A DNA stretch of 64,000 nt from Vairimorpha necatrix (Eukaryota). The stretch spans positions 248,001 to 312,000 of the forward strand of contig CP142731.1 of NCBI GenBank assembly GCA_036630325.1. The letters run 5' to 3'. Made by a program: the position numbers and the translations under genes. How positions within the stretch are numbered: position 1 is the stretch's first letter; each line of letters opens with the position of its first letter. Below, one piece after another: positions 13,165-63,967 of this stretch. The notes under the pieces were generated by a model. It saw only the letters and a list, made by a program, of their open reading frames with translations. It searched no databases and was not told the origin of the DNA.

Positions 13165-13382
13165 TGAGGTCGTGCACAGGGATGTGTCCCGTCCTGAGGT
13201 AGTTCTCTAGGATGCTGTGGCACTTGGATACATCGATCCCTGTAATATAATCCTTAGTTGGAAAAGATTTATTTATTTTCTCTTGATTGCTCTTGAAAGG
13301 CATGGGGTTAAAAAATTATTTCTTTAAATATTTTTGAGGAACAAAATATTTGAAAGATAATTTTACGTGTGGTAATACCACA
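13165..13382 (-). repeat. 3' LTR of element A
   Basis: Direct repeat of 16981-17198. Confidence 0.96.
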
Positions 13383-13393
13383 TTCTGCCTCTC

Positions 13394-16300
13394 CTATAAT
13401 TTGACGTCCATTATGTGCGTCATGTGGCGGTCTCCTTCTAGTCTAATCCACCTTCCCTTCCGTCCTATCTCCGTGACTCGTTTCTTCCTTTTAAATTTCT
13501 TACCTAATTTTTTGGCGTGATGGTCTTTGGCATATACTAAATCTCCTATGTTGACTTTGCATGGTGGAATGATGTATGGTCGCGATTTTACCGTGGTTTT
13601 GTTGTGTAGGGGATCGAATACAGAGAACTGCTTGATGGCTGCAAGGGGCGATGTTCCTATGGTGCGATTATGGTTCATGTTTATTGTATCCTCGATGTCG
13701 GCGAGGATTGGCCGAATGTTTCTTTTCTTGTTTATTGCTAAGATAAACGCAATGGTTTTGTTTAAAGATTCAGATATTCCATTGGATCTCGGACTGTAGG
13801 TTGGAATTAGTGTATGAGTGATCTTTGCATTGTCTAAGTATGTTTTAAGTTCTCTACCAATGTACTGTTTTCCGTTATCAGATATGATTTGTTTTGGTTT
13901 GCCGTAATCTCTTTCCCACTGGGTTAAGGCCTCTATGACTTTACTTGCTCCAACATTGTAATAGAAGTATAATCTTGTAAATCTAGAATATATGTCTGTG
14001 ATGGACAAGATATATCCTGCCTCCTTTTTCCCCTTATGAATGTAGTCATTTAATTTAAAAGGTCCGAAAATGTCGCTGCTTATTTTTTCAAATTTATGGT
14101 TGGCAGATATATGGGGTCCTTTAGTCTCTATTCCGTTATTTCGTGGTTTATATCTTTTACAAGTTTCACATTTTGATATTATATCCTTTAAGTTTTGAAT
14201 GATGTTTTTTACGTAGACTATATTTTTCAAGTTGTTATACATCGTGGTAATGCCCCGATGACCAAATAACACGTGATTGTTCTTTAAAAACATTTTTGTT
14301 TCGGCATCCTTTAGGATGATTCTACCCTTTGAATCCAGTAAATATTCTCCGTCTCTGTAGTGGCTTGCCTTTTGCAAACTTGCGATGTATTCTTTTATTT
14401 TAGGGGTTTCCTCTTCAGTGATTGCAAAGCATCTTGATAAGTTGTCGGCTATTACGTTTTCTTTGCCATCTACGTGAAAAAGGTCGTAATCAAATTCATT
14501 CATGTTTAGCTTCCATCTTAGTATTCTTGAAGTTTCTTTATTGCATCCCATTACACAGTTTTTACTGTCTGTGTAGACTTCTATGTAAGATCCCTGTGTA
14601 ATTTTTCTAAAGTGAATCATTGATAGCAATATTGAGAGATACTCTTTTTCTACTATTGTATAATTAAGTTCCGGTCCTCCAAATTTTTTGCTATAATAGC
14701 CTATGATTCTATCTTCTTGGTATAATACACTTCCCATTCCCAACTCACTAGCATCGCAGTTGAGTTTAAATTTCTTTTTAAAGTTGGGAAAACATAATTT
14801 ATGATTTTGGCGGATATGAAGTTTCATCCTTTCAATCTCTAATTTCATTTCTTGGGTGAGTGCTTTGTTTTTGTTTTCTTTCTTTAGTAGATCACTAATT
14901 GCATGTAGTTTCATTGACAAATCAGGTAGAAATTTCCTGTACCAGTTCATGACTCCTAATAGTTTTTGTACATCTTTTAGTGTTTTGATTTCCTTGTAGA
15001 AGATTTTGTTTTCTAGATAAGACTGTTTTGGGTAAATTCCATCACCTTTTACGACGTATCCTAATACTTCTACTTCTGATTGAAAGAATTTTGATTTTTC
15101 AAAATTAATTTTAATGTGGTGTTCAAATAGTCGTTGAAGTACTTGTAATAGGGTCGCAGTATGTTCTTCTTTGGTCTTGTTGAAAATAATTATGTCGTCA
15201 ATGTACACAAAGATGTTACTTATTTCTTCTAGCATGTTTGAGATTTTTCTTTGGAAGATCTTCGGCCCCGGTTTTATCCCAAAAGGTATTCTTTTATATT
15301 GGTATTGTTTTCCTAACAAGAAAAATGACGTGTACTTTTTGCTATTTTCTTCTAAAAGAATTTGGTTAAACCCATTTTTTAAATCAATTTGACTAAAATA
15401 TAAATTTTCTCCCATGAGTGTAATTGAGTCTTCAATGTTTGGAATGTTCCATATGTCGTCTCCAATGTATTTGTTTATCTCTCGATAATCTACGACCAGT
15501 CGTAGTTCATTAGTCTTCTTTTTTTCCTTGAAAAAGGCCGGACTCGTGATATGTGATTCGCTTTTCTCTATTATGTTTTCTTTAAGTAGTCTATTTACTT
15601 CGTCTTTGGCCCTTTCCAGAAATTTAAACGGAACGCTGTAATTTTTTGGCTTCATATTTTTCGGTTCCTTTATTATTTTAAACTCTACTTTTAAGTTGTT
15701 AATGTGACTAAAATTGTTGTTGTTCTGTTGGTAAAACTTTAAATATTTAATTATTTCATCTTCTTGAACGACACTACATATATTGTCCATTAACCTATCC
15801 TCTAGTATTTCGTCGATGTTTTTTCTCGCATTTTTTAGAACTACGATGTCGTTATCCAACACGATTGTACGATCCTTATAATTTAAAATAGCATTGTATG
15901 AAGTAAGAAATTCGTTTCCTAACAAAAATTCTATCGGTGCATTGTCTAATATCTTAAAGTTAATATGGTAATTTTTTCTGTTTGGTAGAGTGACGTTGAT
16001 TAAAGCTTGTTTGCTTATGATCCTGTGAGTACCATCTCCAAATATAGTTCTTAGTGGCTTGCAGTCCTCTACTGATAGATCAAGGCTTTTTATTACATCA
16101 CTTCGTACATAGTTGCGGTGTGATCCAGAATCGATTAATAGATTTATGTTGTTTCCTTGGGTAGTACCTTCTAATATCAGTTCTAAGGGTTCATGTTCGT
16201 TCTCTTCACGTAATATCATTGTTTTGTTTTCTTTTTCCTTAATGCCTTTATTGTTGTTAAGGAAATAGCAATCTTTACTATTGTGGGTATTATTCCTATG

Positions 16301-17119
16301 GTGAGTGCACCATTTAGTACTTGAGAGTGGAGCTTTAGTTTGGGGGGTTTTTTGAGGTAGCATCATTTTCTTACTTCTCTCACTATGCACTAAGAGTCCC
16401 GATTCTATTCTTTCTAGGTGAAGAATGATCTCTCGTAGTGTTTTATTGTGTATCCCGGCTTTATATAGTTCCATGTCGGTATATGGCTCTAACCCTCGTA
16501 AGAAGATTTCTTCTGTTCTTCTATCAGTTTCGACTTTGCTCATGTGTCCCAGAAAGCTATACACCTCGAGATCTTTGGTTATCTTATTGAAGTATTCTTT
16601 CACAGTTCTGAAGTTACTCTGCTTGATGTTCTCCAGTTTATTTAGGTATAGTCTTTTGTTTTCAAGGGGATACTTGATAGCAAGTAATTCCTTTTTCAGT
16701 TGCAAGTATGAAGTACTGTCTAGTTCCTCCTTGTAGTATTCATCTAGTATGAGGCTATAAGCAATTAGTCCCATCTGTGAGTCATTCCAGCTATTACATT
16801 TAGATAAGTGTTCAAATCTTTTAAACCATGAAAGCTCTAATTCTTGTCGTACGTCAAAGATTTTCTTAATTCTTTCTTGAATTTTTTCTTCAGTTCCAAG
16901 AACCTGCATGGTGAACTGGGCGTATTCATCACTTCTGTGTTTATCTGAGTTGTTTGCACTTGTTGTCGTTGAATTCAACTTGAGGTCGTGCACAGGGATG
17001 TGTCCCGTCCTGAGGTAGTTCTCTAGGATGCTGTGGCACTTGGATACATCGATCCCTGTAATATAATCCTTAGTTGGAAAAGATTTATTTATTTTCTCTT
17101 GATTGCTCTTGAAAGGCAT
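13394..17119 (-). CDS. Gag-Pol polyprotein (gag, CHHC knuckle, protease, RT, RNase H, integrase), intact
   Basis: WCTHHRNNTHNSKDC; LLIDSGS; YIDD; NCDAS/ADNLSR; H..H..CETC; SDNG; domain order PR-RT-RH-IN. Confidence 0.96.
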   Translation of the reverse strand: MPFKSNQEKINKSFPTKDYITGIDVSKCHSILENYLRTGHIPVHDLKLNSTTTSANNSDKHRSDEYAQFTMQVLGTEEKIQERIKKIFDVRQELELSWFKRFEHLSKCNSWNDSQMGLIAYSLILDEYYKEELDSTSYLQLKKELLAIKYPLENKRLYLNKLENIKQSNFRTVKEYFNKITKDLEVYSFLGHMSKVETDRRTEEIFLRGLEPYTDMELYKAGIHNKTLREIILHLERIESGLLVHSERSKKMMLPQKTPQTKAPLSSTKWCTHHRNNTHNSKDCYFLNNNKGIKEKENKTMILREENEHEPLELILEGTTQGNNINLLIDSGSHRNYVRSDVIKSLDLSVEDCKPLRTIFGDGTHRIISKQALINVTLPNRKNYHINFKILDNAPIEFLLGNEFLTSYNAILNYKDRTIVLDNDIVVLKNARKNIDEILEDRLMDNICSVVQEDEIIKYLKFYQQNNNNFSHINNLKVEFKIIKEPKNMKPKNYSVPFKFLERAKDEVNRLLKENIIEKSESHITSPAFFKEKKKTNELRLVVDYREINKYIGDDIWNIPNIEDSITLMGENLYFSQIDLKNGFNQILLEENSKKYTSFFLLGKQYQYKRIPFGIKPGPKIFQRKISNMLEEISNIFVYIDDIIIFNKTKEEHTATLLQVLQRLFEHHIKINFEKSKFFQSEVEVLGYVVKGDGIYPKQSYLENKIFYKEIKTLKDVQKLLGVMNWYRKFLPDLSMKLHAISDLLKKENKNKALTQEMKLEIERMKLHIRQNHKLCFPNFKKKFKLNCDASELGMGSVLYQEDRIIGYYSKKFGGPELNYTIVEKEYLSILLSMIHFRKITQGSYIEVYTDSKNCVMGCNKETSRILRWKLNMNEFDYDLFHVDGKENVIADNLSRCFAITEEETPKIKEYIASLQKASHYRDGEYLLDSKGRIILKDAETKMFLKNNHVLFGHRGITTMYNNLKNIVYVKNIIQNLKDIISKCETCKRYKPRNNGIETKGPHISANHKFEKISSDIFGPFKLNDYIHKGKKEAGYILSITDIYSRFTRLYFYYNVGASKVIEALTQWERDYGKPKQIISDNGKQYIGRELKTYLDNAKITHTLIPTYSPRSNGISESLNKTIAFILAINKKRNIRPILADIEDTINMNHNRTIGTSPLAAIKQFSVFDPLHNKTTVKSRPYIIPPCKVNIGDLVYAKDHHAKKLGKKFKRKKRVTEIGRKGRWIRLEGDRHMTHIMDVKL

Positions 17120-17198
17120 GGGGTTAAAAAATTATTTCTTTAAATATTTTTGAGGAACAAAATATTTGAAAGATAATTTTACGTGTGGTAATACCACA
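16981..17198 (-). repeat. 5' LTR of element A (contains the CCCC-ATG start of gag)
   Basis: Direct repeat of 13165-13382; the ORF start at 17119 lies inside it. Confidence 0.96.
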
Positions 17199-33867: not shown

Positions 33868-34095
33868 TGTGGTATTACAACCACATGTAAAATTCCATTT
33901 TCCCAAAATGGAATTTCTTAAATATTTTTTTTAAAAAATATTATTTTTCGACCCCAACAAAAAGAAAGAAGTAGATGCAGAAAAACAACAATAAACATTT
34001 TTTAAATAATAAACAAACAAGGCCCAAGGAGCCGTTTACAAGTAGTTTGCTAGAGGCCTACTTTCAACGAGGGTTCATCCCTCGTGACCACCTCA
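33868..34095 (+). repeat. 5' LTR of element B
   Basis: Direct repeat of 37696-37923; contains the gag start at 33975. Confidence 0.96.
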
Positions 34096-37000
34096 AGTTG
34101 AATTCAACGAGGAAAACTCATATCAAAGATGAAAAGAAAGAAAAAGAACATACAGAATTTGAAAAAAATATACAAGGAACTGCAGTTAAGAGCAAAGTAA
34201 AAATTTATAACATTTATGATATTCAACAAGATTTAACCATAAATCAACTCCAAAAATTTGAGATGTTAGCTAAAGCAAATGATTGGAATGACGAACAAAT
34301 GGCTTTGATTTACATGGATTGTATACACGATCCAAGAAAAGATTATTTACCATCAGATTCTTATATTGCATTAAGAAAGTCACTGTTGAATTTTATTTAT
34401 CCACCGGAACAAAAAAGACATGCGATACGTGAATTAGATAATACAAGCCAAATAAGTTATTTTAGTATCAAAGAATATAAAGAAACAATCGAGGAAAGAC
34501 TTAACAGTTATTCATATTATAATGATCTAAAAAAAAGAGAAGCTCTGCATAAAATGGAAGAAGTATTTTTAAAGGGACTAGGAGATTTCACACATTTAGA
34601 ATTAACAAGACAAAATATAAGTAAGGAAATTTATGAAATTTATAATTACCTTGTTCTAATAGAAAATGAAATTTTAACTAAAGTCGAGAAACCCAATACC
34701 CATTATGAAAAAGAAAATTTTGATTATAACAGAAATACTCAATTTAATAACCCGAAATGGTGCTCACTTCATAAGAGTAACTATACTCATGATACCAGGC
34801 GTTGTTACGCCTTACATAATAAAAAAAGATTGCCTGAATTTGCAGATCACAAGGATAAAAATATGATTATTAAACAACGTAGCCAATGTCCAGAAGACAT
34901 TACTGTAATAGGAAAAATAGGTAATAAGGATGTGAAAATGCTATTAGATAGCGGATCAAGGAGAAATTATATTACTAAAAGCGCAGTTAATGAATTTAAT
35001 TTAAAGAAAGAAGAATGTGCTAGAATTAAAACCATTTTTGGAAATAATGAAACAGCAGAATCCAATGAAATGGTCAATACTGTTGTTACGATAAAAGAAA
35101 AACCTTTTGAAGTAAAATTTTGCGTTTTAGAAAAATTACCCGTTAATTTTGTTCTAGGGAACGAATTTCTTGACATGCATTGTGCAAAGTTAGATTACGC
35201 CGAAGGAACGGTAGAATTAGATGGACTACGAATTGACATGGTACATAAAGAGGGAAATGCTGAGGAATTGCTAGATAAAGAAATAGTTAATAAATTATGT
35301 CAGGTTAGCGAAAGCGAAGAATTTAATAAACTATTAGACTTCTATATTAAAGAAAACAAAAAATTTACCTCTATGAAAACAAACCTAGCTTCGTTTAATG
35401 TAATACAACCAGTTTTAAAAACAAAGAAGATTACCTATACAGTTCCATTTAAATATATTGAAAAGGCGAAAATGGAAATTAAAAGACTTTTAGATGCAGA
35501 TATAATTGAAAAGAGTTCTTCTGATATAATAAGCCCTGCATTTTTTATAGAAAAGAAAAATAAATATTTACGTTTAGTAGTAGATTATAGGGAAGTAAAT
35601 AAAGCTTTACAAGATGACCCATGGATATTGCCCAAAATTGAGGATTGTCTAACAATAATGGGATCTAACAAATTTTTTACGCAGATTGATTTAAGTAACG
35701 GATTTAATCAGATAAAAATAGATGAACAAAGCAAGAAATATACATCGTTTTTTTTATTAGGACAACAGTGGCAATACAAGAGAATTCCCTTTGGAATTAA
35801 GCCCGGTCCAAAATTATTTCAAAGAAATATTTCAAACATTTTAGGAGATTTCGATAATGTATTTGTTTTCATAGATGATATTGTGATTTATAATAAAACA
35901 AAAGAAAGTCATTTAATTTCCGTAGAAAAAATACTAGAAACTTTATATAGCAAAAATGTCCAAATAAATTTCGAAAAATCGAAGTTTTTTTAACCAGAAA
36001 TTGAAGTTTTGGGTTACAAAATAAATCACGAAGGAATTTTTCCAAAAACTAATTATTTAAATAATAGAATATTCGAGAAAGAAATAAGAACGAAAAAGGA
36101 TTTACAAAAACTGTTAGGAGTGATAAACTGGTACAGAAAGTTTATTCCAGATCTTTCGATAAGGATTAATAAATTTACAGATATGTTAAAAAACAAGAAT
36201 GAAAATAAAATTAAAATAACGACCGAAATGAGAAAGGAAGTTGACAGAATTAAAGAGTGGATTTTAGGTAATCATATGTTATCATTTCCCGATTACAATA
36301 GTAAATTTACATTACACGTTGACGCGAGCGAAATAGGTTTAGGAAGTACACTAACACAAAAGGATAAAATCATTAGATATTATAGTAAAAAATTTTCCGG
36401 TCCAGAATTAAATTACAGTATTGTTGAGAAGGAATTTTTGGCAATTGTTTTATCTATGCTCAATTTTAAAAACATAATCCAAGGATCTTATGTAGAGATT
36501 TATACTGATAGTAAAAATTGTATCTATGAAAATAAAATCGAAACATCAAGAATTAATAGATGGAAATTGTTGTTAAATGAATTTAGTTTTTCACTAAATC
36601 ATATAGATGGTAATAAAAATTGTATGGCAGATAATCTATCAAGAAATTTCATTGGAATCGGAAATAATGAAAACAATAATCACGAAGAAATTATTAAACT
36701 AAACCAAGAATGTTGTCTCAGAGACAAAAACGGTAACTTTATATTTGATAAAGAAAAGCGCTACATAGTTAAATTTAACCAAGTAAAAAAATTTATATCA
36801 TTTATGCATGAATTTGGACTTCATAGAGGAATTTCTACCCTATATTACAATATAAAGCGCTATTACTATATAAAACGAATCTTTAAAGAAATAAGAAATA
36901 CCATTAGCAAATGTAAAATTTGTGGAATTTATAAAAATAAGCATCCTAAAAAATATATCACTGGCAATATAGTAGCACAAAGAAAATTTGAAAAGGTAAG

Positions 37001-59009: not shown

Positions 59010-60696
59010 AAGTTTATTTAAATGTTATTTTCATATTGATACAAAAGCCTAAATGTGTATGACGCATAATGACACAACGCGGGACTCATTTTTTAAAATA
59101 AATATACGTTATAATGAGGAGAAACAAACAAATTTAGATTGTAATATTTATTAAATCGTATTTTTTTTTGTGTCACATCAAATTACAGACTGAGTAATAT
59201 CTTTAGAGCTGTTATTTTATTTTTATTTGTTTTTCCAAAATGTTATCTATTTCGTTTTAATTTTTTCTGTAGTTGTTCCTACATGGTTCTTTTTAATATT
59301 TTGACTATATGTCTATAATGATCAAAACAATGTGCTATAGCAGTTTTTTTTTCTAATATGTTCTTTTCTCTAATATCAGACGACATACAAAAAAAGTATA
59401 GTAAGCATTTTAAAAGAATATAGATAAGATAAAACATTAACATGTGCTTTTTATAATAACATTAGTGTTTTTGTTTGTTTTATGTAAATGGGAGCTATTT
59501 GGTCGGTTTTCGATTCGAACTAAGAAGAATACGATTGTGAAACTTAAAAATTTTTAAATAGAAAAAATTTATGACGAGAAATATCTAAGAAGGTAAAAGC
59601 GTACATCAAGACGATCACGCCGAAGAAGACGCTAGAAAGCATTTTTCTGGATTATCGAAGAAAAGAGATTAAGCCGATGTGAAAATGAGTATGGAGCCTA
59701 GAAGTTACCTACAAGCAAGAGACGCTAACGCGGAACCTATTCTCGTGAAATCAAAATATAAACTACATTAAGCATACCCCAATATAAATCATTCATTTAT
59801 GGCGAAATATTCTACGATATAAAAAATCTGTATGCTATCTAAATTTTAGAAACCACAATTAAAGTATGATTTGTCCGGGTAATTAAAGGTGTGCTTCTAA
59901 ATGATTTTTTATATTTGAAATCTTCGAAACAAATTTCAACATAAATATTAAAAAAAAGAAAATTAAAAAGAATAAATTCTAGTACGACCATTTATTAAAA
60001 TTTATATTATGCTTCTTTTTTTAACATTGTTTTAGAAATAATATAACCAAAAAAATAATATATAGTATTTATTTTTATAATTGCTTTCATTGTATGGAAC
60101 TTTTTGTATTCAAATGAAAGGCAATTTTTTCTTGTAATTCTATTAAATAGATTACAAAAAATAATAGCAAACATATTTGTACAACGCGTAATGTAGATTC
60201 GATTCTTTAATTCTTAAAATAATATGCGAAATATGAAGATTAGCAGTCAATGCATAGTGTATCCAAACCCCCATTAAATACATATATAGTTAGAATATTT
60301 TATCATTAAAAATACTTATACTAGAGTAATTTACTGTAAATTGAGATAAAATTGTTTTTTTGGTACTGCTTGTATTTATGAAATTATATCAATTATAAAT
60401 TCTTATCCAAAGGTAATCTTTCAATTTTCTTAGATTATAGAAATACCACCAAAAAAACATTTAACTAGATATATAAAGAATGTATTAAAAAATTTAATGA
60501 TGCGTTATATTTTACTTAGATTAACTAAAGGGATTATAGCTTTTTCGTAAAAAATCAGCATTTTTATTAAGTAGTTATGTGATATTAATTATTTATACTT
60601 TAATTTTTTTCTTAATATATTGATTTTAAGTATAAATTCCTATGATCACGCTTTATTTTCTTCTATTAAAAATCGGAAGATGAATATGTCATAAAA

Positions 60697-60734
60697 TGTT
60701 AACCATTTATTTATTAAGGGTTCTAAACCCTACA
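60697..60734 (-). repeat. 3' LTR of element C (38 bp; contains the ORF stop)
   Basis: Identical to 63734-63771; bounded by the PPT and the TSD. Confidence 0.93.
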
Positions 60735-63700
60735 TCCCCCCTCCAGACGGGTAGTCTCTCCATCTTCTAAACAACTCTTCCTTATCTCTTTCAAATCATA
60801 ATGCCTCTTTTTAACAATTTTACCATCCAGTAGTCTCACAATATATGAATCATTTTCACTTATAGCTACGATCCTTCCGCGACCCGTGAATCTTCCCTTG
60901 TCTGTTTTCGCACGTGTACCTAAATTTTCTCTCCTAGCGATTCTTACCTCTTGGCCTACTGTAAATGTCTCTCTGTGTCTTCTCTTGAACCGACCAGCAT
61001 ATTTTCCATTTTCATCATTTTCAATTATAACTTCAGCAGTTTGATCTCTCCACGCTTCCATCGGCGTACATTTTATTGCTGTATGTAGTGTATTATTATA
61101 TCCTTTGATTGCTCTTTCTATCTTTTCAGAAATATTCCCATCATTTTGCTTTATCAATGTCTCTCTTATAGTTCTGATGCATCTCTCGATTCTACCATTA
61201 CTCCTATGAGCTTCTAAGCCCACTTTCCTATGTTTAATATCATTAATACTACACCATTCTTTAAATCTATTACTTACAAACTCTTTTCCGTTGTCTGTCA
61301 CATATTCCTCTGGAAATCCATCTTCCCTTATCCACTTTTGTAATACCTCTATAACTTCACTACTCTCTTTACATCTCAAATTCGAACCCCACAACCTTCT
61401 AGTAAAGTAATCAATACCCAGTAACACATACCTATTCTCTCCACCTATGTCCATTAAATCCAACGCCACTTTCTCCAATTTCTTTCTAGTTACTACGAAA
61501 TCACATCCTCCTGTGTTTTTCCTATTGTTAATCCCACATATTTCACAATTCTTAATTACATTATTAATATGATCTTTCATACCAGGCCAATACCATCTTT
61601 GTTTAATGTTATAATAAGTGCCTTTGACACCTCTATGGTTTAACTCCTCATGTACTCTTGTTATTTCATGTTCTCTACTATCTAGGCTCAATATCTCTTT
61701 CACCTCACCTGTGGAAAATTCCCAATACTGTTTACCGTCCTTTTCTTTAATATGTTTCTGCTTTTTTCCCAAAATTTGTTTTTCGATCACTTCTTTTCTC
61801 TTGTTGTCCTTTTCTTTTTGTTCATCCGAAACTTCTACCTGATCATACTGCCTACTTAACGCATCTGCATCTGTCATCAACTCCCCTTTCACATACTCTA
61901 TTGTAAAGTCAAACTCTTGTATCTGTTCTACCCATCTGTTTATTCTGTTATTATTGAAGTATGGCTTATTTCTGATCTCTGCTAATGCTTTATGATCCGT
62001 CATCAAATGAAATTTCCTTCCTCTCAAATCACTTTCAAACTTCTTTATTCCAAAAAACACCGCCAACATCTCCTTCTCACTTATCGTATATCTTCGCTCG
62101 GTAGGAGTCAACATTTTCGATGCCCATTGTATCGGAATCCACTCACCCTCTTTATTTTCTTGTAATAGAATTGCTCCGATCCCCGTATCACACGCATCAG
62201 TTCTTACTCTAAATAGCTTTTTTCCGTCCGGAATCTTCAACTTTTTCATATCTCTCAAGCCTTGCTTCATATCCTCAAAAGCTCTTTCCATATCCTCCGT
62301 CCAATTCCACTTAACATCTTTCTTTAAAGCCTCAGTAAGCCTTACTGTTCTATACGCATAGTTGGGAATAAAGTCTCTAAACCAACCAGTTAGTCCTAAA
62401 AATCTTCTTAACTCTCTAACATTCTCAGGTTTTCTATATTCCAATGTCTCCTGCTTTTTAATCTCATTCGGTCCCATGACCTCCCCATTAATTGTTACTC
62501 CCAGCAACATCACCTCATCTTTTTTGTATTGTATCTTTGTTTGGTTTATTCTCAACCCACACTCTTTAAACTTTTTAATTACCCTCTCTAGTAACTCGTC
62601 ATGCACTCTTACGTCTTTACCATGAATAACTATATCATCCATATATACTTCCACGCCTTTACCTCTGAATTCATCTAAAACTCTGTTCATTACTCTCTGC
62701 ATTATATGAGGCGAATTCTTAAACCCCATAACCATACTATTCCATTCGTATACTCGACCATTCACTTCAAATGCTGTTTTGTGCTTATGGTGCTCCTCAA
62801 TCTCAATATGATAAAACCCTTCTTTTAAGTCGATAACCGTAAATACTTTTGACCCCTGTGTGGCTCTCATAATATCCTTAATTAACGGTAGTGAGTACGG
62901 GTCCTTGTCAACCAAATCGTTTAACGCCATCAAATTGCTTACCAATCTTACGTCCCCATTTGGGTTTTCAAGTGCTCTTATTGGACTCCTCCACTCACTT
63001 TTGGAACGTCTTATAACCCCTCTATTTTCCAACTTATTCAAGTACTCCTCAAATTTCACCCTAAGGTAGTATGGCACATTCTGCCCTCTTTTCACAACCT
63101 TTTCACCTTGCTTAGTATTTATTGGACACTTCTCTCCTGTGAGATATTTTATCTTTTCTTCTGATTCTTTAAAAACTTCCGGATACTTTTCAATTAAATT
63201 TTCTAACTTATTTACTGTTTTACATCTTTTCCCTTCATTGTTGATAATTGGTTCTTTCTGTAAAACTTGTTCCTTTTTAATTTTATATTTTTCCCTACCA
63301 GCTACACTTTCATGACATTCTCTAGCGTAATGCCCTTCTTTCTTACATATAAAACATTTTGTAGTTTCTCTGATTTCTCTTCTTTTCCTATACATCCTAA
63401 GATTTTCTTTTCTTTCTTCCCTAAACTCTTTCAACACTTTATCCATAATCTCTTTAATCATTTCTTGTCTTTCTTCTGACTCTCTCTCAAATTCTGCTCC
63501 TTTTTGTAAGCCTTTATAAATTTCCTCCCAACTGCTCCTTCCGTCACAAAAATTTTCAAAAATATAATCCTGCAAGTTCGCAGATGCCAAATCCATAACA
63601 TCTTTCCACTCAACTTTCTCAACTTTCAATATTAACTTTAGTCTCTTATCTATCCTAATTGCCTCTTTCTCTAATGTTCTAGCCTCTTGACTACGGGACT

Positions 63701-63743
63701 CTCTTGTTTCCCTGTTCATCCTTGTGTTCGCCATGTTAACCAT
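60723..63743 (-). CDS. Short Gag-CCHC-RT-RNase H-integrase polyprotein with no recognisable protease
   Basis: CFICKKEGHYAREC; YMDD; TDAC/TDH/DADALSR; HEELNH..CEIC; TDNG; ERCIR. Confidence 0.95.
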   Translation of the reverse strand: MVNMANTRMNRETRESRSQEARTLEKEAIRIDKRLKLILKVEKVEWKDVMDLASANLQDYIFENFCDGRSSWEEIYKGLQKGAEFERESEERQEMIKEIMDKVLKEFREERKENLRMYRKRREIRETTKCFICKKEGHYARECHESVAGREKYKIKKEQVLQKEPIINNEGKRCKTVNKLENLIEKYPEVFKESEEKIKYLTGEKCPINTKQGEKVVKRGQNVPYYLRVKFEEYLNKLENRGVIRRSKSEWRSPIRALENPNGDVRLVSNLMALNDLVDKDPYSLPLIKDIMRATQGSKVFTVIDLKEGFYHIEIEEHHKHKTAFEVNGRVYEWNSMVMGFKNSPHIMQRVMNRVLDEFRGKGVEVYMDDIVIHGKDVRVHDELLERVIKKFKECGLRINQTKIQYKKDEVMLLGVTINGEVMGPNEIKKQETLEYRKPENVRELRRFLGLTGWFRDFIPNYAYRTVRLTEALKKDVKWNWTEDMERAFEDMKQGLRDMKKLKIPDGKKLFRVRTDACDTGIGAILLQENKEGEWIPIQWASKMLTPTERRYTISEKEMLAVFFGIKKFESDLRGRKFHLMTDHKALAEIRNKPYFNNNRINRWVEQIQEFDFTIEYVKGELMTDADALSRQYDQVEVSDEQKEKDNKRKEVIEKQILGKKQKHIKEKDGKQYWEFSTGEVKEILSLDSREHEITRVHEELNHRGVKGTYYNIKQRWYWPGMKDHINNVIKNCEICGINNRKNTGGCDFVVTRKKLEKVALDLMDIGGENRYVLLGIDYFTRRLWGSNLRCKESSEVIEVLQKWIREDGFPEEYVTDNGKEFVSNRFKEWCSINDIKHRKVGLEAHRSNGRIERCIRTIRETLIKQNDGNISEKIERAIKGYNNTLHTAIKCTPMEAWRDQTAEVIIENDENGKYAGRFKRRHRETFTVGQEVRIARRENLGTRAKTDKGRFTGRGRIVAISENDSYIVRLLDGKIVKKRHYDLKEIRKSCLEDGETTRLEGGCRV
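63721..63733 (-). promoter_or_regulatory. tRNA primer-binding site of element C
   Basis: TGGCGAACACAAG directly follows the LTR-terminal CA; TGG is complementary to the tRNA CCA end; cognate tRNA not identified. Confidence 0.75.
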
Positions 63744-63771
63744 TTATTTATTAAGGGTTCTAAACCCTACA
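63734..63771 (-). repeat. 5' LTR of element C (38 bp)
   Basis: Identical to 60697-60734; bounded by the TSD and the PBS. Confidence 0.93.
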
Positions 63772-63848
63772 TAAAATAAAAAATTCATAATTTTTTTTCT
63801 ATATATTACTATTAATACATATTCTAAAATTTATTTAACTAAAAAAGT

Positions 63849-63967
63849 AATTACGGCCATATCTACTGTAAAGCACCGGAACTCGTCAGCTCTCCGAAGT
63901 TAAGCCAGTAAGAGCCCCGTGAGTACTGAGATGGGAGACCGCTCGGAAAAGCAGGGTGCTGTAATTT
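63849..63967 (+). rRNA. 5S rRNA: 5S ribosomal RNA
   Basis: TACGGCCATA..., GAAGTTAAGC (box A), AGTACT..ATGGGAGACC (box C); terminal helix AATTACGGC/GCTGTAATT; T4 terminator; ~119 nt. Confidence 0.95.

Follow-up and report, generated by a model that had tools for sequence, protein, structure and literature searches.

A Ty3/gypsy-derived element of Vairimorpha necatrix with a short Gag, 38-bp terminal repeats and no protease of its own

Introduction

In textbook accounts, long terminal repeat (LTR) retrotransposons and retroviruses need a protease of their own and an excess of capsid protein. Tf1 of fission yeast, which encodes Gag, protease, reverse transcriptase (RT) and integrase in a single frame, keeps and needs its protease, and it self-primes from the 5′ end of its own RNA. 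Protease-free retroelements include the non-LTR elements (with a coiled-coil ORF1p, in some cases carrying CCHC knuckles, and ORF2p), the DIRS/Ngaro elements and the hepadnavirus polymerase. Here, we describe element C, which occupies 3075 bp on the minus strand (60697–63771) of a 64,000-nt stretch of Vairimorpha necatrix DNA (assembly GCA_036630325.1, contig CP142731.1, positions 248,001 to 312,000; hereafter the window, to which all coordinates refer). By RT phylogeny and by its landmarks, element C is a Ty3/gypsy derivative that fails one defining feature of that group, the protease.

Gypsy groups specific to microsporidia have been described as single-polyprotein elements in a report whose available text never uses the word 'protease' (PMC4202319). 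According to the available part of another report, 'nearly all' elements of Nosema bombycis have five domains (PMC2474625), and because only 'nearly all' are said to have them, an exception like element C may already be in print among the N. bombycis elements. Neither gypsy lineages devoid of a protease nor LTRs of such small size are described in the literature searched, and the consensus sequences of the first report may include members of the family described here.

Element C shares with Ty3/gypsy elements (Metaviridae), including elements A and B of the same window, the order of RT, RNase H and integrase, a CCHC knuckle, TG..CA repeats, a 5-bp target duplication, a TGG after the 5′ LTR, a purine tract before the 3′ LTR and its nesting in the tree; in A, B and C alike, one polyprotein frame starts inside the LTR. 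It differs from them in having no aspartic protease, a Gag of about 130 rather than about 300 aa, a total length of only 3075 bp, and LTRs of 38 bp, as against 218–229 bp in A and B or 58–176 bp in the related loci L020, L030 and L026. Like Tf1, element C has a single frame and thus a Gag:Pol ratio of 1:1, but it lacks the protease. With the protease-free retroelements it shares the absence of a retropepsin, and its long helix and knuckle before the RT resemble the logic of an RNA chaperone acting in cis. Unlike the non-LTR elements, it has LTRs, a DDE integrase and an integrase-type target duplication, with no non-LTR endonuclease among its Pfam matches; unlike DIRS/Ngaro, it has rve and Integrase_H2C2 domains and plain direct repeats, with no Pfam hit to a tyrosine recombinase. 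A non-autonomous LTR element of the TRIM/LARD type was ruled out by the intact RT, RNase H and integrase.

Element C lacks a protease of its own

The translated list of open reading frames contains a single frame for element C (60723–63743, minus strand), open for 1006 aa (P0001) and unbroken, as stated in a preliminary description of this stretch made from the sequence alone. Pfam profiles applied to P0001 at E ≤ 1 detected a weak zf-CCHC (aa 129–144), RVT_1 (261–418), RT_RNaseH (508–611), Integrase_H2C2 (690–741) and rve (766–839), in which RT, RNase H and integrase follow the gypsy order. Even at this permissive threshold, no protease family was matched, and the profiles RVP, gag-asp_proteas and Retrotrans_gag were all absent from the hits.

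The nucleocapsid-like zinc knuckle, identified by Pfam, alignment, and profile and fold matches, lies at aa 130–143 (63315–63356), with C130, C133, H138 and C143 as its metal-binding pattern. It is followed by a charged spacer of 33 residues (aa 144–176; 63216–63314), behind which begins a block matched in alignments by the N-terminal RT sequence of relatives. The RT itself, defined by Pfam and alignment, covers aa 177–418 (62490–63215) and comprises this N-terminal part, with LIEKYPEVF at aa 181–189, and RVT_1 with YMDD. The preliminary description had reported a knuckle at about aa 130–143, some 35 charged residues after it, LIEKYPEVF as the start of the RT and no D[ST]G protease motif in between; each of these points holds, and D[ST]G is absent from the whole of P0001 upstream of the RT anchor. 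Further downstream follow the RNase H region (aa 481–611; 61911–62303), assigned by Pfam, and the integrase (aa 690–900; 61044–61676), assigned by Pfam and alignment, with its HHCC (H698, H703, C733 and C736) and DDE (D762, D817 and E853) residues. The four knuckle residues, YMDD, the acidic residues of RNase H, HHCC and DDE are invariant in all 12 aligned relatives.

The place where a protease would be expected could be located by comparison with P0046, a related protein whose protease lies at aa 199–287. In hhalign, residues 177–210 of P0001 pair with residues 295–326 of P0046. Because the N-terminal part of the RT thus aligns directly behind the protease of P0046, the protease slot in element C is the 33-aa spacer, an assignment that agrees with the composition of the spacer and its low-confidence structure model. 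The other sense-strand frames of element C offer no room for a protease either, with stop-to-stop frames of 42 and 55 aa only. The 129 residues preceding the knuckle contain no proline and three glycines, and 50% of them are E, K, R, D or Q, compared with 23% in the protease of element A. Retropepsin was absent from all three lists of fold matches to the N-terminal model (Foldseek PDB, Foldseek BFVD and VIA wide). Hence, no beta-rich domain of about 90–100 aa with D-[ST]-G, as expected of a retropepsin, is found between Gag and RT.

Protease profiles have been reported to be insensitive in fungal LTR elements, in which, in the available part of that report, missing hits are usually profile failures (PMC3248453). 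This warning is addressed here by the tests of motif, slot length, frame and fold, together with that of the family given below. Element C is truly without a protease of its own, and its Gag is short, with 128 aa before the knuckle, close to the previous estimate of about 130. By comparison, elements A and B do carry proteases, as already noted in the preliminary description, at aa 317–413 (with LLIDSGSH) and aa 313–399, respectively.

The absence of the protease is shared by a clade of relatives

A protein search yielded 51 relatives (P0002–P0052), which are 31–74% identical to P0001 in the A3 alignment. The organisms named for them are Nosema granulosis, Vairimorpha necatrix and Enteropsectra breve, and many relatives lie on contigs of 3.0–3.2 kb. 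Precomputed annotations listed no protease family in P0002–P0052. In our own Pfam scan of all 52 proteins at E ≤ 0.1, RVT_1 and RNase H were found in all 52, rve in 44 and zf-CCHC in 25. Only three proteins, P0046, P0047 and P0051 (31–35% identical to P0001 in the A3 alignment), matched gag-asp_proteas; in P0047 and P0051, the DTG and the I-[IL]-G are both intact, whereas P0046 reads DRG. Peptidase_A17 was matched in four of the 52 proteins, with a best E value of 0.029.

A FastTree phylogeny of 937 columns and 50 rows was built from element A, 12 protease-bearing outgroups and those of the 52 proteins with a length of 850 aa or more (37), the 15 shorter ones being excluded. All 34 rows without a protease group together in a single clade (SH-like support 99) nested inside the protease-bearing rows, its sisters being, in order, P0046 with P0047, P0051 and element A. 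Since the protease-less clade sits inside protease-bearing elements, a single loss of the protease suffices. The absence is fixed among the 34 near-full-length clade members, about 36–68% identical in the alignment, none of which has a protease at this junction, and dozens of relatives in the same range of identity retain open frames of about 1000 aa. On these alignments, the missing protease is not a private deletion of element C.

The layout of the N-terminal region likewise leaves no space for a hidden protease. The RT anchor motif was located in 39 of the 52 proteins, and 32 of these have a knuckle upstream, at a distance from the anchor of 101–179 aa in the relatives and 107 aa in element C; the other seven are three N-terminally truncated proteins and P0043–P0046. 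Two of the 39 proteins contain a D[ST]G before the anchor, and in neither is there room behind it for a protease. A search of representatives with a profile of the N-terminal part found no such N-terminus joined to a protease; its full-length matches were short fragments, and the remainder were multi-knuckle proteins.

Two further arrangements were observed. P0043 and P0044 (about 37% identical in alignments and 40–42% by BLASTP) form a protease-less sub-branch with no CCHC knuckle and an N-terminal part of more than 300 aa before the RT anchor. At L001 (50–310) and L002 (1092–1352), a fragment matching the RNase H part (aa 500–587) immediately precedes, in the same frame, a near-full-length copy beginning at aa 86; the arrangement is chimeric or nested.

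Miniature terminal repeats enclose nothing but the frame

A single direct repeat flanks the frame; it is perfect, 40 nt long and has a spacing of 3037 nt. Its 38-nt core, which on the sense strand reads TGTAGGGTTTAGAACCCTTAATAAATAAATGGTTAACA (TGTAGGG...GTTAACA, starting with TG and ending with CA), forms the 5′ terminal repeat at 63734–63771 and, with the same sequence, the 3′ terminal repeat at 60697–60734, as found by repeat search and by direct reading of the sequence. The preliminary description was right that the LTRs are identical, but it missed their length of 38 bp and the start and stop codons inside them. Copies of the target-site duplication TTTTA adjoin the element upstream (63772–63776) and downstream (60692–60696), and are supported both by the sequence and by the empty-site joint described below.

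The 5′ repeat contains a CCC motif (LTR positions 15–17), two overlapping AATAAA within AATAAATAAA (20–29) and the first ATG of the frame (63743–63741; LTR position 29). A second in-frame ATG, at LTR position 38 and present family-wide, is made up of the last A of the repeat and the TG of the TGG that follows. This TGG opens a stretch resembling a primer-binding site (PBS), TGGCGAACACAAGG (63720–63733), which lies immediately after the 5′ repeat, supplies the codons M-A-N-T-R and is suggested by the sequence, the N-termini of relatives and the TGG at L003 and L020. At the opposite end, the conserved nucleotide block GAGACTACCCGTCTGGAGGGGGGA (60735–60758), with codons ..ETTRLEGG.., adjoins the 3′ repeat with its last part, the purine tract GGAGGGGGGA (60735–60744), and the TAG stop codon (60725–60723) falls within the 3′ repeat. 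Both the PBS-like stretch and the purine tract therefore sit within the coding frame, there is nothing except the frame between the LTRs, and the landmarks of an LTR retrotransposon, the primer site among them as a candidate, are all present in compressed form.

Relatives show the same compression. The metagenomic locus L003 (hit segments 40–54% identical, broken frame) has repeats of 39–41 nt (TGTTG...TGACA) with a TTATA duplication on both sides, and TGGCACCC, including TGG, follows its 5′ copy. At L006 (67% identical), a 38-nt repeat at the 3′ end is preceded by the 24-nt conserved block. This block, with GAGACTACCCGTCT..GG.GGGGA in common, was retained in all four clade loci having a 3′ end (window, L006, L003 and L004). 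The relatives' proteins agree with this, in that translation of ..NNC A|TG GCN/GGN yields their N-termini, x-[H/Y/N/D]-M-[A/G], and their C-termini (ETTRLEGG, GGDVV) correspond to the translated purine-tract block running into TGT. Judged from these sequences, the miniature LTR is a family trait. Among protease-bearing relatives, the LTRs are of intermediate size and measure 58 nt at L020 (P0051 lineage; repeats 229–286 and 3535–3592), 75 nt at L030 (262–336 and 3777–3851) and 176 nt at L026. L020 has an ATG at the junction of LTR and TGG and a stop codon in the 3′ LTR, as in element C, and no matching target duplication. The TGG behind the 5′ LTR is common to the window, L003 and L020.

ARAGORN found no tRNA genes in either the window or the scanned loci. 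Reading of the element C LTR revealed no complement of the PBS-like site of the kind expected for self-priming as in Tf1.

The short Gag is predicted to be helical

The N-terminal Gag remnant of element C (aa 1–128; 63360–63743) has counterparts of 99–164 aa before the knuckle across 21 aligned family members. An AlphaFold model of aa 1–210, computed from the 21 aligned N-termini, has a mean predicted local distance difference test (pLDDT) score of 78.3 and predicts an all-helical remnant, in keeping with its composition, with helices at residues 14–37, 46–52 and 55–65 and a 56-residue helix at 72–127. Averaged over blocks of ten residues, the pLDDT is 87–98 over residues 21–140 and about 50 in the spacer after the knuckle. 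Accordingly, no cryptic protease fold was seen: aa 14–127 are predicted to be helical and the spacer to be disordered.

Comparison with known capsids gave a weak likeness to a single lobe. The profile of the 21 N-termini matched HIV-1 Gag (5o2u; E = 1.8e-10), with positions 51–150 aligned to residues 304–410, that is, from the C-terminal domain of the capsid protein (CA) through the first knuckle, most of the score coming from the knuckle; in this alignment, the conserved 'AS..LK.FI.E' of the N-termini pairs with 'ASQEVKNWMTE' of HIV helix 9. The same profile also matched the virus-like particle protein of copia (8vvw; E = 3.6e-6) and Ty3 Gag (6r22; E = 0.003). Foldseek searches of the N-terminal model against PDB and BFVD returned no match at E ≤ 0.001, and only the knuckle superposed on retroviral nucleocapsids. 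The best Z in the VIA wide search was 6.2, with no chain at Z ≥ 8; residues 22–88/97 were placed on the C-lobe of Arc (4x3x_A; Z 5.4, root-mean-square deviation 3.0, 63 residues aligned), a result within the noise of helical models, as are the tied rows at Z of about 5, which comprise the Arc chains 4x3x_A, 7r24_A and 7r1z_A and the CA-like C-terminal domain of MOAP1 (7lgc_B; Z 5.0). As a lead, the model and these matches suggest that the Gag stub may consist of just one capsid lobe, of C-terminal type, followed by a long helix and one nucleocapsid knuckle. The stub would then weakly resemble the C-terminal domain of HIV-1 CA, the C-lobe of Arc and the CA-like domain of MOAP1/PNMA, and differ from whole capsid proteins in having no N-terminal lobe.

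A two-lobed capsid is probably missing in element C, because 128 aa are too short for two lobes. Retrotrans_gag and Ty3_capsid were absent both from the Pfam hits of P0001 and from the 25 most-matched of the 57 families found in the 52 proteins. When the N-terminal profile was compared by hhalign with P0046 and with the Gag of L026 (a Pfam PNMA hit), the N-terminal part of the RT or the knuckle alone was aligned. The protein atlas returned Gag-like clusters (DUF7041, Retrotrans_gag) at 0.84–0.86 only, under the threshold for a lead. Prediction of a two-copy complex of aa 1–150 gave no support for self-association, which is not evidence either way.

Element C appears to have been recently mobile

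No RNA run figures among the 21 public runs listed for element C. Four public runs contain 26–92% of the sequence words sampled from element C, and all four were read as contigs. An X2 contig joins position 60689 to position 63770, skipping 3080 nt, which equals 3075 nt plus one 5-bp duplication, and includes eight ambiguous letters. This contig has a depth of 6.7 and three more differences in the flanks, the letters between the two sides being given as 'not known', and the joint is consistent with the site being unoccupied in a related haplotype or strain. Contigs from X2 and X3 exit the element exactly at 63772 into two different flanks, which fits copies at other sites. X1 contigs break within the repeats (60706 and 63751), as expected of a repeated 38-mer. 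Owing to the empty-site contig and the other flanks in the public runs, the intact element C is regarded as an apparently recently mobile copy.

Possible modes of action of a protease-less element

The preliminary description had proposed that element C either works as an unprocessed fusion or borrows a protease or capsid in trans. Its premises, the absence of an own protease and the short Gag, are borne out, and no result separates the two options. We tentatively favour an uncleaved, cis-acting fusion of Gag remnant, knuckle, RT, RNase H and integrase; the element would belong to a streamlined offshoot of the Ty3/gypsy elements that lost the protease at its base. The protease would have been cleanly lost there from between the nucleocapsid knuckle and the RT, Gag would have been reduced to about 130 helical residues plus one knuckle, and the LTRs would have shrunk to 38–41 bp, with the frame starting close to the end of the 5′ LTR and stopping shortly after the 3′ LTR begins. 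The 116-kDa product would work without its own protease as one protein, the knuckle and helical part holding the encoding RNA (cis preference) and the disordered spacer acting as a tether to the RT. Reverse transcription and integration would take place in a ribonucleoprotein and not in a closed capsid shell, since Gag is a stub and, at a Gag:Pol ratio of 1:1, an ordinary shell cannot be assembled. Transcription would begin and end within the 38-bp LTR via short microsporidian signals (CCC motif, AAUAAA and a very short 5′ UTR), as a result of which an R region of only a few bases would be left. Microsporidian genes, in the portion of the source available, have 5′ untranslated regions (UTRs) of less than 7 nt and an AAUAAA signal, and their start codon is preceded by a CCC-like motif (PMC2803860).

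Several points weigh against the uncleaved, cis-acting fusion. The observations comprise the anatomy, its family-wide conservation, a tree with one loss of the protease, the target duplication and an unoccupied site; uncleaved function, cis action and the transcript start and end are steps that we infer. Retroviral and Ty polyproteins are poorly active before cleavage. The N-terminal part, which would hold the RNA, is fast-evolving (24% mean pairwise identity), and its fold has no significant match. No primer tRNA was found, as the complements of the PBS-like stretches of the window and of L020 occur in G001 and G002 no more often than the controls and never in a tRNA. The AATAAA of the LTR is without special statistical support, because AATAAA is not depleted inside element C (6 observed against 4.5 expected). 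Finally, protease-bearing elements are co-resident in both assemblies examined (the window and G001), so that help in trans is conceivable.

An alternative explanation is that host proteases cut the polyprotein at the exposed spacer, perhaps also at the linker between RNase H and integrase, making an own protease dispensable. Besides its predicted disorder, the spacer has features that would suit this, in that it varies from 26 to 75 aa in 12 relatives with a mean pairwise identity of 20%, 31–51% of its residues are charged in 21 relatives, and 10 of 21 members have a basic patch, K[KR]x[KR], among the final 25 spacer residues, compared with 3.7 expected from shuffled spacers. Such a patch, as a sequence motif, could be an exposed cleavage site; however, it could equally be a nuclear import signal, and no conserved cleavage motif is defined; we consider host cleavage unlikely, if still credible.

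The family could also rely on co-resident protease-bearing Ty3/gypsy elements of the A and B type for a protease, and perhaps for a capsid, in trans. Elements A and B share the 64-kb window with C, and the closest relative in G001 (L018, 69% identical) co-occurs with the protease-bearing L024, L026, L030 and L032. However, co-residence in two of the two assemblies examined is what transposon-rich genomes would show anyway, element C shares only about 27% identity with A and B, and the junction that would need the foreign cut is the least conserved part. Moreover, the clade's own RT, RNase H and integrase have stayed intact through deep divergence and in several host genera, unlike those of typical non-autonomous elements, and we judge dependence in trans to be improbable. 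That element C is decayed, privately deleted or hiding a divergent protease is scarcely tenable despite the insensitivity of profiles mentioned above, given an absence common to 34 of 34 near-full-length clade members, a slot of just 33 aa with no other sense frame above 55 aa, a confidently helical region without prolines and with three glycines before the knuckle, and the intact frame, identical repeats, target duplication and empty site.

A protease-less, one-knuckle, 38-bp-LTR lineage that is diverse, long-lived and, as it appears, mobile even now would set a new lower bound for integrase-based retrotransposition, and the family may show how little such an element needs for copying. A single 3-kb gene would also offer a compact system for asking if cleavage and a capsid shell can be done without. 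Going further, and with more reserve, it is possible that element C represents the smallest self-sufficient type of LTR retrotransposon so far (3.1 kb), one that has given up protease and shell for an uncleaved, cis-bound protein, uses a 38-bp LTR as promoter, start, stop, polyadenylation signal and integrase substrate, and has, under microsporidian genome compaction, arrived convergently at the ribonucleoprotein strategy that non-LTR elements use. Since programs for finding LTRs usually demand repeats of at least about 100 bp, elements of this kind would enter annotations only as isolated 'reverse transcriptase' or 'endonuclease' genes, and the names given to the relatives look so.

Genomic setting

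Element A (13165–17198, minus strand) and element B (33868–37924, plus strand) are gypsy elements of about 4 kb with identical LTRs of 218 and 229 nt, respectively, and with frames that begin inside the 5′ LTR. Despite its identical LTRs, the frame of element B is split into 672 and 500 aa. A further retroelement, perhaps non-LTR, is indicated at 10188–12242 (minus strand) by a 684-aa frame with RVT_1 only (aa 449–669).

A 5S rRNA gene (63849–63967, plus strand; Rfam, 92.7 bits) lies next to element C, whose 5′ edge is 77 bp upstream of it in divergent orientation. This adjacency, a single case, recalls the targeting of Pol III genes by Ty3. No 5S or tRNA gene was found beside the relatives at L001–L004, L006 and L007, and a suspected resemblance in the flank of L003 was not confirmed.

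Metagenome-assembled genomes (MAGs) labelled Clostridium sp. (L006 and L018; G001) and Turicibacter sp. (L007; G002) contain 51 and 14 polyprotein matches, respectively. These look like misbinned eukaryotic contigs, and the 'bacterial' RT annotations attached to such matches are misleading.

The window is AT-rich, with a G+C content of 22–39% in 2-kb steps, and the sense strand of element C (60697–63771, minus strand) is 66% purine, with just 9.6% C. The placement of the host among the microsporidia of the Nosema/Vairimorpha group follows from a lipin gene of the window (2098–3831), which shares 73% identity with the Vairimorpha apis gene and 59% with the Nosema granulosis gene.

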